Made by a program: the position numbers and the translations under genes. A stretch of 17,239 nt of DNA, from NCBI GenBank assembly GCA_019057865.1, contig JAHLWP010000057.1:1-17239 (forward strand). Direction: 5' to 3'. This DNA comes from Promethearchaeota archaeon. GTDB taxonomy: Archaea > Asgardarchaeota > Lokiarchaeia > Sigyniarchaeales > SOKP01. The notes beneath the pieces were generated by a model. That model did no database searches, was not told the DNA's origin, and was given only the letters and a program-made list of their open reading frames with translations. Shown piece after piece: positions 4,001-13,979 of this stretch (position 1 is its first letter; every line of letters starts with the position of its first letter).

Positions 4001-4330
4001 AAAAATTCATTATAATTTATTATTAATCCAGAAATATTAAAAAACAATTATTTAAATTTTTTATAAATTTATTAAATATGATCATATTATTATTGATATC
4101 AGTAACATATTAACCTATCTATAGAAATATTAATTAGGAAATCTCTATCAAAATTTACAATTTCGAATAAATTACAAGATCTCTAAAAAAAAAGTTACAT
4201 AGACGAAAATATTAATAATTAAATTGAAAAAACATAATACGTAAAAGATTGTTATAATCTATGTGAATTATAATATTTAATAAAAAATGTAAAAATTAAA
4301 AAAATTTTTAATTTAATGAGGTAAAAAATA

Positions 4331-5782
4331 ATGGAAACAAAAGAAGATATAATTGATTATTTACAATCTATTGATATGGGCATTGGTTTTCAAGATTTGA
4401 ATGAGCATGTGATAAGTAAAAATGCCTGTATTTTTTGTGGAGCATGTATATCACTTTGTCCTCGCATTGGGGTTAGAGATAATAAACCTGTGTTATTAGA
4501 TAGTGACCCAGAGTGTTCTATGTGTTTTAAATATTGTGCGAGGACATACTTTCCAGAAGAAATGTTTGAACAAGATCTTTTTAATGGTAATATTCCTAAA
4601 GACTTTTTAATAGGACATTATCAAAAGATTATTGCTGCAAAAAGCACAAATAAAGAGATTTTGATGGTTGCTCAAAATGGTGGTGTGGTAACTACCTTAC
4701 TTATTCATGCTTTAAATACAGGATTAATAGATGGTGTTCTTCTTGCAGATAGAGATGAAAATTGGGTGCCAAAACCAACAGTAGTACGGACTCCTGAGGA
4801 AATAATGCTCGTTGCTGGTTCAATATACACCATGACACCAACTCTACTTTCTTATTCTGATGCTATTAATAAATATAAACTTAAGAAATTAGCATTTGTG
4901 GGAATGCCGTGTCAAATTCAAGCAGTTCGTAAAATACAATTATGGCCGCCCCTTTCTGAAGAATATGGTAAATTTTCATTAATTATTGGGCTTTATTGTA
5001 CTTCAAATTATTCATATGACTTAATGGAAAAGCTTGTTCAAGAAAAGCTTAAAATAGAAATGAGGGATGTAAAGAAATTTGACATCTCTCGGGGTCAATT
5101 TATCGTTTACACTAAAAATGGTCAATACTGGCAAGTCCCAATACAAGAAACTAAAAAATATAATTGGTCTAGCTGTCAATATTGTAAAGATTATACTGCG
5201 GAATTTGCTGATATATCAGTAGGAAGTGTTGGGAAACCTGAAGGAAGTTGGAATAGTGTAATCATACGTACAGATATAGGTAAAAAGTTATTTGATGATG
5301 CGGTTACCTCTAAAAAAATGATTGTTGCCAATAATGTTAATCTGTCAAAAATTAAAGAAGAAGCAATGAAAAAGAAATCAAAAATCAAAAAATTGGATGA
5401 AAAAGTGTTTTCAGCTATGAAATTCTTAAAAATATCTGATCTTGAAATAAGAACTTATGCAATTCTAGTTTCTCTAGGTAACGCTGACCTACCAATGCTA
5501 AACAGAGTCATGAAATTAGAAAAAGAGGTTATCGATAATACCCTTGATTCATTAGTAAAACGTAAATGGGTAAAATCAACTGATGGATTTTATAAACCAA
5601 TAAATCCAACTAAAGTTATTAAGGATGAGATATATAAATTTAAGAAGGATATTAGGCGAAACATTGAAAGAATTAAAAAAGAAGCTATGGTTGATTTAGA
5701 GACATTATTTGAACAAAATAATCTTATGTATGTACGCTATGAAGAATATTTTGATCAAATTCTATACAAAGAAATACTGTAG
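4331..5782 (+). CDS. Coenzyme F420 hydrogenase/dehydrogenase beta-subunit family (FrhB/FpoF-like, N-terminal ferredoxin) fused to a C-terminal TrmB-like winged HTH and helical tail
   Basis: Ferredoxin motifs CIFCGACISLCP and CSMCFKYC. FrhB motifs AQNGGVVTTLL, GSIY, VGMPCQ, IGLYC, CQYCKDYTAEFADISVGSVG, GSWNSVIIRT. From about nt 5417, LKISDLEIRTYAILVSLG...IDNTLDSLVKRKWVKS..GFYKPINP fits the TrmB N-terminal wHTH pattern. GAGGT RBS. Confidence 0.85.
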   Translation: METKEDIIDYLQSIDMGIGFQDLNEHVISKNACIFCGACISLCPRIGVRDNKPVLLDSDPECSMCFKYCARTYFPEEMFEQDLFNGNIPKDFLIGHYQKIIAAKSTNKEILMVAQNGGVVTTLLIHALNTGLIDGVLLADRDENWVPKPTVVRTPEEIMLVAGSIYTMTPTLLSYSDAINKYKLKKLAFVGMPCQIQAVRKIQLWPPLSEEYGKFSLIIGLYCTSNYSYDLMEKLVQEKLKIEMRDVKKFDISRGQFIVYTKNGQYWQVPIQETKKYNWSSCQYCKDYTAEFADISVGSVGKPEGSWNSVIIRTDIGKKLFDDAVTSKKMIVANNVNLSKIKEEAMKKKSKIKKLDEKVFSAMKFLKISDLEIRTYAILVSLGNADLPMLNRVMKLEKEVIDNTLDSLVKRKWVKSTDGFYKPINPTKVIKDEIYKFKKDIRRNIERIKKEAMVDLETLFEQNNLMYVRYEEYFDQILYKEIL

Positions 5783-5856
5783 TAATACTTGGTTTTAAGT
5801 ATAAAAGAAGTTTTAACAAATTATTATATATAAGAGAGAATAGGAAAAGATATTTT

Positions 5857-6090
5857 TTATTTTGTAATTTCTGCTTTTAATATATCAATTAAAGTTTTTA
5901 AATACTGAGCATTAAATGAATCTTTATTTTGTATTTCTTGATACGCATTAATGTACTCAGCTAATTGTTGTTTTTTCTTTTCTATTTCCCAATAAAGAAA
6001 TCCTTTTTTAAGTTCTTCCGCAAATTCATTATATTCAATATTAGTCATTTTAACTTCATTTTTATGTTTTAATTCAGCAATAATTTCCAT
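5857..6090 (-). CDS. 77-aa mini-paralog of the 'VLELKP' family (helical hairpin only)
   Basis: GFLYWEIEKKKQQLAEYINAYQEIQNKDSFNAQYLKTLIDILKAEI aligns with GYLYVEIGEKEDLLNLLFEEYVSMDNKDSYKGESLKNWIDMIREEI (204 aa) and NYLYHEI...QDTFKAQNLKSWIDLLKIEV (209 aa). Has its own upstream palindrome at 6200-6219. Confidence 0.75.
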   Translation of the reverse strand: MEIIAELKHKNEVKMTNIEYNEFAEELKKGFLYWEIEKKKQQLAEYINAYQEIQNKDSFNAQYLKTLIDILKAEITK

Positions 6091-6199
6091 TTTAATAATA
6101 CACTTCTAATTTTATAATCTTTAGTTAAGTATCTTTACTCTAATTAATTACAAACTAATAGGTAATTTAAAAAATTTGATAAGAGAATTTTTATTTATT

Positions 6200-6219
6200 T
6201 TGACAATTTTATTTATCAA
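6200..6219 (-). promoter_or_regulatory. Putative operator, TTGACA-N8-TATCAA, upstream of the 77-aa gene
   Basis: TTGACA attttatt TATCAA, about 110 bp upstream of the minus-strand ATG at 6090. Arms are identical to those at 11203-11222. Confidence 0.55.
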
Positions 6220-6318
6220 TTAATTTTTTTAAACAATTTTTTTAAATGTTAATTATAACGCCAGAAATATAAAATGATTAAAAATTATGAAGAGAATATA
6301 GCAATTCTTTGAAAAAAA

Positions 6319-9718: not shown

Positions 9719-10444
9719 TCAGAGCTCCAATACAATATCTTTTTCAAGCTCTTCTTTTACTTCTTCTGTCTTAATAGTACGTTTAATCTTGATCTTTTCA
9801 GTATCAACATCTAAATCAGTGGCTAGTTTTTCTATGCCATTGAAATGTCTTAAATCACATATAAACAGACCTTTTAAATTTTTACCCTCTACCTTTTTCG
9901 CGAGATTTAAAATATTCATCATCATCCAAGCTTCTCTAACACTGTATCTGACTTCATTCTCTTGTTGGTCATAATCATTTTGTAAATATTCTTTCCATAA
10001 AACTAACCTCTGAAATAGTTCGTCATTTTCAGGAACTCTTCCTTGCTTTTCAAGAATTCCTCTTATTCTGTCTTCAAGTTTTTGGATAGTAGATCTATGC
10101 TCTTCTAAAGCAGTGGATAGATAATCTTGAGCATTTTCATCAATATCTACATGCTTAAATGGGATGCTTTTTGTCTTAAATAATTCTTCTAATGGATTTT
10201 TTGAGTTTGTAAACTCATCCCAGTTTGTAGGTTTTTCTTCTGCTCCAAAATCAGGTTTATATTTAGTAATAAGGTCTTCAATAAGTTGAAGATACTCTTT
10301 TGAAATTAAATGTAAATTCCAAACAAGGTCATCTTTTATTTTTTTCGGAGCTTCAAACCACCAATCAATTGGAAATTCACTTTCAACCATTATTAATTTT
10401 AAATGCTTTTCTTTTAAAGGTTTTAATTCTAAAACTTTAGGCAT
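9719..10444 (-). CDS. 'VLELKP' family subtype 2, TraB/PrgY/GumN-like fold suspected; paralog of the N-terminal domain of 1845..3506
   Basis: Collinear motifs: VLELKPLK, ESEFPIDW, SKEY, PDF, IPFKHVDIDENA/IPYQFVDIPDYA, FQRLVLWKEYL/FQQLVIWREFL, RYSVREAWMMMNIL/RYKIRESWMMMGIL, FICDLRHF/FICDKRHF. AGGAGG RBS. Confidence 0.85.
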   Translation of the reverse strand: MPKVLELKPLKEKHLKLIMVESEFPIDWWFEAPKKIKDDLVWNLHLISKEYLQLIEDLITKYKPDFGAEEKPTNWDEFTNSKNPLEELFKTKSIPFKHVDIDENAQDYLSTALEEHRSTIQKLEDRIRGILEKQGRVPENDELFQRLVLWKEYLQNDYDQQENEVRYSVREAWMMMNILNLAKKVEGKNLKGLFICDLRHFNGIEKLATDLDVDTEKIKIKRTIKTEEVKEELEKDIVLEL

Positions 10445-10467
10445 TTTTATTTTTCCCTCCTATTCAA

Positions 10468-11082
10468 TTAAAATTCAATATTAATTATATTATGTTTTTT
10501 AACATATTGAATAACCTTTACATTTAACGCTCTAAGTTGTTCTGTCACTTCTGAGCATATATCCTCACAGATATCTTCTTGTACTAAATGAAGAAATGAA
10601 ATTTGTTGCTTTTTATAGTTCTTTGCAATATCTAACATCTTTTTGACAATCCATTGGGGTCTTAGTTTCAAGCTAATAAATATCTCTTTTGCTTGAATCT
10701 CCTCTCTTATCATATCTATCCAATTTTTAAGACTTTCTCCCTTATAAGAATCTTTATTGTCCATACTTACATATTCTTCAAATAATAAATTCAATAAGTC
10801 TTCTTTTTCACCAATTTCTACATATAAATATCCCATTGCATATTCAGGGATATCTACTTGATGATATTTTATCCCTAATTTTTCTAATGCTTGTGCCAAT
10901 TCGGATTTTCTAAATTCTCTCATATTAACAGTAAAATCGACAGTAACAAAATCAATCCTTTTCTTTTTCAAAAAATCACTCAATTTTGGAATATCAAAAT
11001 CATGAAAATCACCTTTACTTCTCTTGGCAATATATGCACAGATTTGTTTTTTTTTTACTGGTTTTAATTCCAAAACTTCCAT
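10468..11082 (-). CDS. 'VLELKP' family subtype 1; paralog of 1211..1840
   Basis: 204-aa ORF with GAGGT RBS, collinear with the 209-aa ORF over its full length. Confidence 0.85.
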   Translation of the reverse strand: MEVLELKPVKKKQICAYIAKRSKGDFHDFDIPKLSDFLKKKRIDFVTVDFTVNMREFRKSELAQALEKLGIKYHQVDIPEYAMGYLYVEIGEKEDLLNLLFEEYVSMDNKDSYKGESLKNWIDMIREEIQAKEIFISLKLRPQWIVKKMLDIAKNYKKQQISFLHLVQEDICEDICSEVTEQLRALNVKVIQYVKKHNIINIEF

Positions 11083-11178
11083 TCTATTTTCTACCTCTTA
11101 AAAAAAATTTACTTTTCTTTTTAATTAAAAATTGTATTAATTCTAAGATAATATTCCTTGAGATGGAATTTAATAAAT

Positions 11179-11222
11179 TTGACAATAAAAATTATGTATA
11201 TTTTGACAACATTAATTATCAA
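11179..11222. promoter_or_regulatory. Tandem putative operators in the divergent promoter: TTGACA-N8-TATGTA (11179-11198) and TTGACA-N8-TATCAA (11203-11222)
   Basis: Read directly from the sequence. A TATA-like TTTATTAA on the minus strand lies immediately gene-proximal (about 11170-11177). Confidence 0.55.
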
Positions 11223-11339
11223 GATCTTATTTTAACAAATTTTTTAATTATAGAAATCCGTAACTTAATTTATGGTATATAGAAAAAATCTCCCATATAG
11301 ATCATTACATTTAAATTCTTGATCACTATAATTATTATG

Positions 11340-11359
11340 ATGATTAATTAATTTATCAA
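11340..11359 (+). promoter_or_regulatory. Putative operator, ATGATT-N8-TATCAA, upstream of the wHTH-hdrA-mvh operon
   Basis: Same 6-8-6 geometry, 73 bp upstream of ATG 11433. Very AT-rich, so a weaker match than the others. Confidence 0.35.
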
Positions 11360-11432
11360 AATAATTTATGTTGAATTTTTTTTTTTTTAAATTTTAAATT
11401 CAGTTTAATAAAAAAATGGAAGGGATAGACAA

Positions 11433-13979
11433 ATGGATTTATACTCTATATTATCTCACGAATTTAGAAGAAAAATTTTATTACTTCTTGAAAAAGAAGG
11501 ATATATTTCTTACACAGATTTAATGGTTAAACTTGGTCTGGATCAAACTGGTCAATTAAATTTTCATCTTAAAAAACTTGGATCTCTGATAAATAAAAAT
11601 AATAAATCCTATTATTTAACTGAAGATGGGAAACGTGTATTAAGAATATTAAATCTTAACAAACGTATTCTTTCTGGTGAAGAAATTGATTATCTCGATT
11701 CTAAAGGTAGTGGGATCAATAGAATTGGTGTTATTATTTGTAATTGTAATACAGAGATTTCGAATGTAATCAATATTAACCATTTAGAAAATTATGCAAA
11801 TAAATTAACTAATGTAGTTTCAGTAAAGATTCTTGAAAATCTATGCCAAGAGAAAAATTTAGATAAAATTGCCAACTGGGTTAAGAATAATTATTTAAAT
11901 AAGGTAGTTATTGCTGCTTGTTCTCCAAAAACGCATCAACATATTTTTGAGAGAATTTTTCAAGAGGTTATTGATAATGCAAATATTGAAATAGCAAATA
12001 TTAGAGAACAATGTTGTTGGGTTCATCATTCTAACATGAGAAATATAGATCATTTATTAGCATTAAAAAAGGCTCATTTACTTATTGAAGCAGCAGTTGA
12101 ACGTGTTAAACTTCAAAAAGAGGTCAAAATAAAAAGAGTTGAGGTAGAAAAAAGTTGTGCTATACTAGGAGGTGGTATCGCTGGGATGACACTAGCATTA
12201 AATTTAGCAAGAGCAGGAATAAAAGTATATATTATAGAAAAAACACCTACATTAGGAGGAAAAGTAGCGAGATGGCACCGAATTTATAAAATGGGAGATT
12301 GTTCAATTTGTTTTATTTCAGAATTAATTGGGGAGATTGTAAAAGAAAAAAATATTGAAATTTTTACCAATACTGAGGTGAAAAATGTCTCTGGTGAGGT
12401 TGGAAACTTTATAATTGATTTAATAAGAAAACCGCGATATATTGATGAAAAAAAGTGTACTGGGTGCAAACAGTGTATTGAAATTTGTGGGATAGAAAAA
12501 GTGAATCAATATGAATTTGGTTTAAACAATAGAAAAGTTATCTATATTCCATTTCCTAATGCATATCCTTATGCTCCTATTATTGATGAGGAAGATTTAA
12601 AAAATTGTTTAAATTGTAGAATATGCGAACGAGCTTGCGTGAATAGTGCGATTGACTTGAATCAAAAATCTGAGGATATTAAAATCAAAGTAGGAGCAAA
12701 GGTAATTGCGATTGGGGCTGATCTTTATTCTGAATTAGATGCTTACCATTATAATCCAAAAAATAATATTATTACTTCATCTGAATTTGAAAGAATATTA
12801 TCCTCAGATGGAATTACAGATGGTAACATCTTGAGAATCTCAGATAAAAAACCTCCAAAAACAATCTCAATCATTCAAAATGTTGGACCTTCTAAATCTA
12901 AAGAAAATTTTATGGATCCTGTTGCCTATAAATATTTAAGTTGCATAAAAGTAAAAAATCCTGATTGTAAAGTGAATGTATTCTACGATTTAAGTAAAAT
13001 TAAAAATAATGATGAGTACATTCTTAAATCTACAGACCCTAAATTTCACTATTCAAAAAATATTAAAATTGAAAATGAAAATAATCAAAATATTGTGATT
13101 ACTAACTCAGAAAAATTTCCAAGTGATTTAATAATTTTAAATCTAAATTTAATACCAAATAAAGATCTAAAAAAATTCCGTAAAACAATGGATTTTACCT
13201 TAGATGATAGGGGGTTCATGAGTGAGGAGACTTTAGCTTCTGGTATTTATGGAGTAGGTACAATTTTTGGACCATTGAACTATCATTCCACTATCTCTAC
13301 AGCTAATAATGTAGCAGTAGAAATTATCTCACTTCTATCACAAAATTATTTAATATCTGAATTTGCAGGAATAGAAATTAATGAATTGAAATGTGGTTTA
13401 TGTAGATTATGTGTGCAATCTTGTCCATATAATGCCATAATAATTGAAGGAGATAAAATAAATATCGATAAATTTAAATGTAAAGGCTGTGGAACATGTG
13501 TAAGTGTGTGTCCTACAAATGCTATTGATTTGAATATTGATACTTCCGAAAAAATACTTAAAACAATAGAAGTTTTTTCTAAATTCAATAAAAAACCAAA
13601 GATTATTACTTTTTGCTGTAAATCTTGTGGTTATGCTGCTGCAGATGACGCGGGATTAAAGAAATTATTCTATCATCCAAATGTGTTTATAATTAAAGTT
13701 CCATGTACTGGTCGTATTGATACAGAATTTATACTTAAATCTTTTGAGGTCGGATTTGATGGTGTAATGGTTATTGGATGTAGAAAAGATGCATGCAGAT
13801 ATATCGATGGAATTCAAAAAGTTCAGAAAAAAGTAAACCTGTTAAAGAAAGTATTAGGTCCACGATTAAGTAGAAGGATTATTATCAAAAATCTGAATGC
13901 TGTAGAAGGTGCCAAATTTTCAAATACAATAAATAAATTTTATAACGTATTATCGGAAGAGATCAGGTTTGAAACTTAA
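11433..13979 (+). CDS. hdrA: Triple fusion: ArsR-like winged HTH + heterodisulfide reductase subunit A-like (partly degenerate) + MvhD [2Fe-2S] domain
   Basis: aa 1-75 (LSHEFRRKILLLL..GYISYTDLMVKLG..TGQLNFHLKKL...YYLTEDGKR) is a wHTH. HdrA motifs: RIGVIICNC, AACSPKTH, NIREQCCWVH, GGGIAG, EKTPTLGG, DCSIC, four CxxCxxCxxxC, ITSSEFER. MvhD motifs: FCCKSCGYAAAD, VPCTGRID, GFDGVMVIGCRKDACRY. Confidence 0.9.
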   Translation: MDLYSILSHEFRRKILLLLEKEGYISYTDLMVKLGLDQTGQLNFHLKKLGSLINKNNKSYYLTEDGKRVLRILNLNKRILSGEEIDYLDSKGSGINRIGVIICNCNTEISNVININHLENYANKLTNVVSVKILENLCQEKNLDKIANWVKNNYLNKVVIAACSPKTHQHIFERIFQEVIDNANIEIANIREQCCWVHHSNMRNIDHLLALKKAHLLIEAAVERVKLQKEVKIKRVEVEKSCAILGGGIAGMTLALNLARAGIKVYIIEKTPTLGGKVARWHRIYKMGDCSICFISELIGEIVKEKNIEIFTNTEVKNVSGEVGNFIIDLIRKPRYIDEKKCTGCKQCIEICGIEKVNQYEFGLNNRKVIYIPFPNAYPYAPIIDEEDLKNCLNCRICERACVNSAIDLNQKSEDIKIKVGAKVIAIGADLYSELDAYHYNPKNNIITSSEFERILSSDGITDGNILRISDKKPPKTISIIQNVGPSKSKENFMDPVAYKYLSCIKVKNPDCKVNVFYDLSKIKNNDEYILKSTDPKFHYSKNIKIENENNQNIVITNSEKFPSDLIILNLNLIPNKDLKKFRKTMDFTLDDRGFMSEETLASGIYGVGTIFGPLNYHSTISTANNVAVEIISLLSQNYLISEFAGIEINELKCGLCRLCVQSCPYNAIIIEGDKINIDKFKCKGCGTCVSVCPTNAIDLNIDTSEKILKTIEVFSKFNKKPKIITFCCKSCGYAAADDAGLKKLFYHPNVFIIKVPCTGRIDTEFILKSFEVGFDGVMVIGCRKDACRYIDGIQKVQKKVNLLKKVLGPRLSRRIIIKNLNAVEGAKFSNTINKFYNVLSEEIRFET

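Follow-up and report, generated by a model that had tools for sequence, protein, structure and literature searches.

What is the DNA-binding domain of a transcription factor doing at the end of an F420-type oxidoreductase? The question is raised by a gene on a 17,239-bp contig of a 4.26-Mb, 29% GC Asgard genome; the complete contig (C72) is the stretch of DNA analyzed here and is referred to as the window, and the nearest named homologues carry the labels Promethearchaeota or Lokiarchaeota. The gene encodes a protein of 483 amino acids (aa), here called FrhB-TrmB, in which a ferredoxin domain and an FrhB module are followed by a TrmB-like tail. No known prokaryotes are more closely related to eukaryotes than the Asgard archaea, whose redox metabolism (hydrogen, F420, and Hdr-type bifurcation) takes a central place in models of eukaryote origin. 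An initial annotation of the window took the protein for a transcription factor that reads the redox state of F420 or ferredoxin. The reading that we favor, and to which we would give an even chance, is a dimeric plug-in F420 oxidoreductase in which the tail, derived from TrmB, serves to pair or dock the enzyme.

The C-terminal tail is a TrmB-type winged helix

The Pfam TrmB family (PF01978) matched aa 364-425 with 25.0 bits in the whole protein and 27.9 bits in the isolated tail, around a cut-off of 25.6. A sequence profile of the tail compared with PDB sequences retrieved TrmBL2 (E = 1.5e-5) and TrmB (E = 4.5e-4). The AlphaFold2 (AF2) model of the tail (aa 350-483; predicted local distance difference test score [pLDDT], 87.8) consists of a helix, a three-helix winged helix-turn-helix (wHTH), a two-stranded wing, and a single 57-residue helix. 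When this model was searched with Foldseek, TrmBL2 ranked first (E = 2e-4; template modeling score [TM], 0.64; root mean square deviation [rmsd], 2.2 to 2.8), and VIA gave Z scores of 12.5 to 12.7 for TrmBL2 (rmsd of 2.5 over 111 residues) and 10.1 for TrmB. Pfam, the profile, and the structural comparisons agree with the architecture read by the initial annotation: the tail (~125 aa) is a genuine TrmB-type wHTH with its dimerization helix, in frame with a complete ferredoxin and FrhB module.

The tail shares with TrmB (3QPH, from P. furiosus), TrmBL2 (5BPD/5BOX), and MreA the succession of a wHTH and an amphipathic dimerization helix, but in the Asgard protein these elements stand at the C terminus of an enzyme, whereas in TrmB they stand at the N terminus of a regulator. 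Unlike TrmB, the tail has no effector domain: the TrmB sugar/effector domain (PF11495) was not matched in Pfam, and the protein ends 18 residues past the long helix. The Tyr50/Asp51 pair of TrmB is replaced by Asp/Asn, and the wing loop is three residues shorter. Our own reading is that the tail is a complete mini-TrmB, wHTH plus coiled-coil helix, appended to FrhB. A phmmer search with the tail against 1.84 billion representatives returned 18 matches, all of them FrhB-TrmB family members or fragments, and found no close free-standing regulator or split form of the tail. Its language-model neighbors are stand-alone TrmB-domain proteins of 109 to 147 aa, with scores of at most 0.87, and serve as a lead only.

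The long helix is conserved and the DNA-reading face is not

Per-column entropy and hydrophobicity of the tail were calculated over 120 homologues. The wHTH core (Y376, L379, L405, L408, and W413) is invariant or nearly so. The most variable positions of the tail, at 2.4 to 3.2 bits, lie in the recognition helix (398, 399, 400, 402, 403, 406, and 407) and the wing (415 to 417, 420, and 422), so that the recognition face, in a further difference from TrmB, is not conserved among orthologues; even a same-genus orthologue differs at most of its exposed positions. A tyrosine (Tyr50 of TrmB) is essential for DNA recognition in TrmB, TrmBL1, and TrmBL2 (PMC4158304). In the hidden Markov model (HMM) alignment its equivalent is Asp402, and the recognition helix is without the TrmB R..VY signature, as the initial annotation had already pointed out. 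Across the family this position is filled by R (23), I (22), N (19), Q (14), K (11), and Y (10). The net charge of the tail wHTH averages +0.9 (standard deviation, 2.9; range, -7 to +8), and that of the recognition helix of the window protein is -1.

We also compared pairwise identity by region in seven genomes carrying both FrhB-TrmB and a second fusion, wHTH-HdrA, in which the wHTH is N-terminal. The H3 helix and wing of the tail showed the lowest identity of all regions of the protein (38%), and identity rose to 45% for the whole tail wHTH and 60% for the FrhB core and was highest (65%) in the ferredoxin domain, the best-conserved part. For the N-terminal wHTH of HdrA, identity was 72%, and its recognition helix (TGQLNFHLKKL) is near-invariant. 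The variable face, the missing tyrosine, the regional identities, and the charge are four measurements that argue against a conserved sequence-specific DNA reader.

The long helix behaves differently. Positions 429, 430, 434, 437, 441, 445, 448, 452, 453, 456, 459, 460, and 465 are 94 to 100% hydrophobic, and N463 and N464 at the end of the helix are invariant. In the isolated-tail model this hydrophobic seam is solvent exposed on a lone long helix, so that either another chain or the core must cover it. A conserved seam of this kind is the pattern that would be expected of a pairing device.

The enzyme core resembles the zeta subunit of an F420-reducing CO dehydrogenase

FrhB_FdhB_N (PF04422) and FrhB_FdhB_C (PF04432) matched the protein with 81.4 and 148.9 bits (gathering cut-offs of 22 and 23.3, respectively), and Pfam Fer4 matched at aa 27-44 of the 483 aa. 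In an alignment of 40 homologues, the ferredoxin-domain cysteines C33, C36, C39, C43, C62, C65, and C69 and the ligands of the FrhB [4Fe-4S] cluster (C194, C223, C282, and C285) are invariant. In at least 90% of these homologues, Asp59 (window positions 4505-4507) stands in place of the Cys that comes first in the second ferredoxin motif. Since Asp59 occupies a Cys position, and homologue P0005 has Cys there, the domain probably holds two [4Fe-4S] clusters, one of them with an Asp ligand.

Among solved structures, the closest relative of the full-length AF2 model (pLDDT, 80; predicted template modeling score, 0.79) is 8RIU_B (Z = 41.5, rmsd of 2.3 over 339 residues, 37% identity), which phmmer also matched by sequence (E = 8e-69; aligned residues 4-375). 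Other structural matches were 8RJA_E (Z = 34.2), Fsr (Z = 33 to 34), and FrhB (Z of ~30). The zeta subunit represented by 8RIU_B belongs to the F420-reducing carbon monoxide dehydrogenase (CODH)/acetyl-CoA decarbonylase/synthase complex of "Candidatus Ethanoperedens thermophilum," and 8RJA_E is FwdI of the formylmethanofuran dehydrogenase (Fwd) of the same organism (PMC11493965). Both begin, like the Asgard protein, with a two-cluster ferredoxin domain and continue with an FrhB-type F420 reductase that contains flavin adenine dinucleotide (FAD) and one [4Fe-4S] cluster, although Asp59 of the Asgard protein takes the place of a Cys ligand of zeta and FwdI. In zeta, the ferredoxin domain anchors and wires the subunit to the CODH core, and two copies meet through a C-terminal extension (residues 350-370), which is the homodimer interface (PMC11493965). 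This extension starts at the position where the Asgard TrmB tail begins; it is ~20 residues long in zeta, whereas the Asgard protein has a 125-residue TrmB-type wHTH and coiled-coil helix. The genes for zeta and FwdI accompany those for CODH or Fwd, to which the two proteins are bound; the Asgard gene has no adjacent partner gene.

The FrhB of [NiFe] hydrogenase (3ZFS/4OMF, 6QGR, and 9R51) and FpoF have the same fold and cluster ligands as the Asgard protein (Z of ~30, 34 to 37% identity). The protein passed the NCBIfam subfamily model PRK09325 (FrhB; 283 bits, cut-off of 269) but did not reach the cut-offs of the frhB equivalog TIGR03289 (259.8 versus 331.5 bits) or of FpoF NF040616 (188.9 bits versus a curated cut-off of 475). 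As the initial annotation had stated, the gene stands alone, with no frhA, frhG, fdh, or fpo neighbor in the 17,239-nt window. No FrhA over the cut-off is present in the genome (best match, 153 versus 392.5 bits), and the protein is thus not part of a canonical Frh hydrogenase. Genes for F420 biosynthesis are present over their cut-offs (CofH, 456 bits; CofD, 310; CofE, 257), so F420 is available in the host, a context that supports probable FAD binding and F420 turnover.

A plug-in reductase is the preferred reading

On these grounds we infer F420 as the substrate, a dimeric state, and an iron-sulfur partner. F420H2/F420 would react at the FAD, and electrons would pass through the FrhB [4Fe-4S] cluster to the two clusters of the N-terminal ferredoxin domain and from there to a partner, either soluble ferredoxin or an iron-sulfur enzyme complex, probably one of the HdrA/MvhD type. 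The tail would be an entire mini-TrmB regulator captured through gene fusion. Its retained job would be mainly structural, forming a homodimer via the long helix and perhaps helping with docking, and it would read no specific operator. This reading draws on the similarity to zeta, whose C-terminal extension homodimerizes at the same position, and on the invariant cluster ligands, the Cof genes, the hydrophobic seam, the variable reading face, Asp402, and the near-neutral charge. It also draws on gene order, as FrhB paralogues lie directly behind hdrA-mvhD in this genome and the orthologue of another genus (g22) lies beside HdrA/MvhD/FrhB/HdrD genes.

Several points weigh against a purely structural tail. 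Two basic residues, K395 and R411, are conserved, the second of them aligned with a basic residue in both TrmB and TrmBL2. A coiled-coil helix alone would suffice to dimerize, but several Asgard classes have retained the wHTH fold in full; the wHTH therefore probably does something more. The gene is monocistronic with a 330-bp intergenic region upstream, an arrangement often seen for regulators, and across 12 loci no partner gene is conserved beside it. Loss of the tyrosine does not exclude DNA binding either, because MreA, a TrmB regulator consisting of the DNA-binding domain only, regulates without it (PMC4158304).

The strongest alternative is a one-component redox regulator or trigger enzyme, which we hold to be possible but tentative. 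The FrhB module would sense the F420H2/F420 or ferredoxin redox state via its FAD and clusters, and a redox-linked conformational change would affect the binding of the dimeric TrmB tail to DNA and so switch redox or one-carbon (C1) genes. Trigger enzymes and redox-sensing repressors such as PutA and Rex fuse an enzyme or cofactor-binding module to a DNA-binding domain, and DNA binding by PutA is controlled by the redox state of its flavin. The folds and cofactors of PutA and Rex differ from those of the Asgard protein, in which DNA binding and redox switching are putative. The tail shares homology and fold with the DNA-binding domains of TrmB and TrmBL2 and has a conserved wHTH core and the conserved K395 and R411, but its recognition helix and wing are the fastest-evolving part of the protein, most exposed positions differ within a genus, and Tyr50 has given way to Asp in a domain of near-neutral charge. 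The stand-alone TrmB-domain proteins among the language-model neighbors (again a lead only), the monocistronic gene, and the long upstream region would suit a regulator; a pure sensor, on the other hand, would not need a complete ferredoxin wiring domain, let alone as its best-conserved part. This lineage may really contain enzyme-regulator fusions, since the neighboring wHTH-HdrA has the appearance of a DNA-binding protein and a conserved operator accompanies it. Of the transcription factor proposed by the initial annotation, the TrmB-type fold and the F420-making host have held up, and the reading face, the tyrosine, and the charge speak against the rest. A regulator that senses the redox state of F420 or ferredoxin and whose fast-evolving recognition helix reflects lineage-specific operators strikes us as rather unlikely.

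No single operator accompanies the orthologues

The initial annotation had named three intergenic regions as targets, and two of them, 6091-6318 and 11083-11432, contain the palindrome TTGACA-N8-TATCAA (6200-6219 and 11203-11222). Its degenerate form, TTGAYA-N8-TRTCAA, has 3 exact copies in 4.26 Mb compared to ~5.6 expected, and the region upstream of the gene (4001-4330) has no site of this type within two mismatches. In 16 of the 17 genomes of family f1, to which the genome of the window belongs, a copy of the consensus TTGAYAA-N6-TTRTCAW with zero or one mismatch lies 85 to 390 bp upstream of wHTH-HdrA-MvhD, and 9 of these palindrome-bearing genomes have no FrhB-TrmB orthologue. FrhB-TrmB is therefore not a necessary reader of the palindrome. 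The copy number, the empty region 4001-4330, and conservation in genomes without the gene led us to reject TTGAYA-N8-TRTCAA as its operator; the operator in the two target regions belongs elsewhere, with the wHTH of HdrA itself, or another factor, as the better candidate reader. An exact copy of the palindrome lies 140 bp upstream of the FrhB-TrmB orthologue of genus g3 (L051:9571-9590), which suggests co-regulation of the orthologue with the HdrA operon there.

A regulator would find some support in GATCAT/ATGATC motifs upstream of same-family orthologues and in a 12-bp palindrome upstream of the gene itself (ATATGATCATAT; Table 1). In genus g6, FrhB-TrmB and a wHTH-FrhB paralogue are divergent, and the region that separates them contains four GATCAT/ATGATC copies in L058 (7776-7994) and three in L060 (5575-5794), and the motif occurs once each in the g1 and g3 promoters. 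However, in g6 it is shared with the wHTH-FrhB gene, it is absent from the orthologue promoters of g22 and of genome G065, and it is not enriched genome-wide. We did not uphold it as a shared operator and keep it as a weak lead; no operator is common to all orthologue promoters.

The same motif was seen at two other places in the genome of the window: a cluster lies upstream of MvhD-FrhB493 (C1:363-386), and eight copies fall in one intergenic region (C54:40728-40965).

FrhB-TrmB is patchily distributed and has variable neighbors

The combination of FrhB_N, FrhB_C, and TrmB domains, for which the initial annotation had suggested a search, recurs in more than 120 near-full-length Asgard homologues (472 to 497 aa, >590 bits), most of which carry PF01978, PF04432, and PF04422. 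Their submitter labels are Promethearchaeota, Lokiarchaeota, Hodarchaeales, Thorarchaeota, and Heimdallarchaeota, and the N terminus (METK...) is kept across the family. We found no paper describing the fusion in the searchable literature. Among 151 sampled genomes of the phylum, full-length orthologues are patchy: they were present in 2 of 5 genomes of genus g1 (the genome of the window included, with one more contig-edge partial), 3 of 3 of g3, 1 of 12 of g4, 2 of 2 of g6, and 4 of 5 of g22, a genus of another family in which the fifth copy is truncated.

Hdr/Mvh-type genes lie near the gene in g1, g6, and g22 only, among the 12 loci compared. The gene is 5 to 14 kb from wHTH-HdrA-MvhD-MvhG-MvhA in g1 and g6, and in g6 it is divergent to an FrhB paralogue of ~490 aa. 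The g22 orthologue faces an HdrA-MvhD-FrhB-HdrD cluster, and after the orthologue come a further FrhB, a GlcD-like FAD oxidase, and an HdrD-like protein. An MFS transporter follows the orthologue in g3.

The g22 loci also show HdrA as two same-strand open reading frames (ORFs) of 181 and 449 aa (L057:5674-7584 and the L056 equivalents), which may reflect an in-frame stop (selenocysteine) rather than two genes.

Winged-helix fusions are a genome-wide theme

FrhB_C has 12 matches in the genome. An N-terminal extension of 120 to 160 aa is present in three FrhB paralogues of ~500 aa and in a 917-aa FrhB-GltD-like fusion (Table 1); its profile matches wHTH regulators: PH1932 (1uly, E = 8e-5), an ArsR-type protein (E = 1e-3), and MJ223. 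The N-terminal wHTH of the FrhB paralogues and the TrmB tail gave an hhalign probability of 3.5%, indicating that they are independent acquisitions and not a shared module. Three of these N-wHTH paralogues come immediately after MvhD-like genes. The MvhD-like ORFs at C37:~10400-10830 and C23:~5830-6250 (minus strand) have two in-frame TGA codons, which fall at positions of Cys motifs and probably encode selenocysteine. HdrA-like ferredoxin motifs precede these ORFs, so that hdrA-mvhD-frhB operons result.

Winged helices of three kinds are thus fused to at least six redox subunits, which are spread over five contigs. The initial annotation had viewed the two fusions in the window as a redox-regulatory island. 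That term proved too narrow for a theme that runs through the genome, and linkage to wHTH-HdrA is seen in two related genera only.

Two further FrhB fusions were observed in the genome: a 608-aa FrhB with a PyrK-like NAD-binding/Fe-S domain (C23:100450-102276) and a 710-aa FrhB with a polysaccharide pyruvyl transferase (C18:1-2130).

Docking to a winged-helix subunit or to DNA as less likely alternatives

The abundance of such subunits raises the alternative that the tail is a hetero-docking adaptor, binding a winged-helix redox subunit (wHTH-HdrA-MvhD, 11433-13979, or an N-wHTH FrhB) for which the enzyme would be the F420 port. We consider this improbable. wHTH-HdrA-MvhD is present in every sampled FrhB-TrmB genome but one, which is 76% complete; however, wHTH-HdrA is far commoner than FrhB-TrmB, and 11 of 12 sampled g4 genomes and families f12 and f19 have it without FrhB-TrmB. 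The two genes are close together in g1 and g6 and unlinked in g3, g4, and g22. The g3 orthologue promoter shares its palindrome with the wHTH-HdrA promoters, and the genome offers at least six winged-helix redox subunits, but the three wHTH types are mutually unrelated by the hhalign result given above.

Least credible, and in our view highly improbable, is sequence-independent tethering to DNA or the nucleoid, in which a TrmBL2-like tail would park the enzyme on DNA: although the best structural match, TrmBL2, is a nonspecific chromatin protein, and contacts with the DNA backbone alone would be in keeping with conserved K395 and R411 next to a variable base-reading face, the average charge is near neutral and swings from negative to positive across homologues, no obvious benefit for an F420 enzyme is known, and the TrmBL2 DNA-binding domain is itself highly conserved (PMC4158304).

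If the winged-helix domains are adaptors, they would point to modular assembly of electron-bifurcating complexes; if some of them bind DNA, redox enzymes would control genes directly. Were FrhB-TrmB a redox-sensing regulator after all, it would be the first transcription factor to read the F420 pool directly and one instance of a broader tendency in Asgard archaea to join DNA-binding heads to electron-bifurcation subunits. With one soluble protein, one cofactor set, and one tail, FrhB-TrmB is a clean test case.

Sequence features

The features of the gene, of its upstream region, and of the N-extended FrhB paralogues are collected in Table 1.

Table 1. Coordinates of FrhB-TrmB and associated features (window positions unless a contig is named)
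Feature	Position	Strand	Remarks
Whole gene, ferredoxin-FrhB-TrmB-tail protein	4331-5782	+	Open ORF, ATG start, 483 aa plus stop
GAGGT, ribosome-binding-like motif	4318-4322	+	8 nt before ATG, read from the sequence
Ferredoxin-like domain, aa 27-75	4409-4555	+	C33, C36, C39, C43, D59, C62, C65, C69; aligns to the two-cluster domain of 8RIU_B
FrhB_FdhB_N, aa 101-172	4631-4846	+	Pfam E = 5e-23
FrhB_FdhB_C, aa 185-332	4883-5326	+	Pfam E = 1e-43; invariant C194, C223, C282, C285
FrhB C-terminal helix and Lys-rich linker, aa 338-356	5342-5398	+	K348 and K349 invariant; aligns to the end of 8RIU_B
TrmB-type wHTH, aa 357-425	5399-5605	+	Pfam, profile, Foldseek, VIA
Putative recognition helix, aa 398-410	5522-5560	+	HMM alignment to TrmB and TrmBL2; D402 equivalent to Tyr50
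Long amphipathic helix, aa 426-465 (40 residues)	5606-5725	+	Conserved hydrophobic seam; ends in invariant N463-N464
12-bp palindrome ATATGATCATAT	4076-4087	+	~250 bp upstream of the gene; weak lead
11-codon Ile/Leu-rich mini-ORF (MIILLLISVTY)	4078-4113	+	Starts inside ATATGATCATAT
N-extended FrhB paralogues	C37:10862-12367, C23:4301-5803, C1:1030-2511, C25:30654-33407		Loci L041, L043, L044, L042

Rfam returned no match for the region of the mini-ORF, which is probably a chance ORF, since such ORFs are expected in 29% GC DNA.

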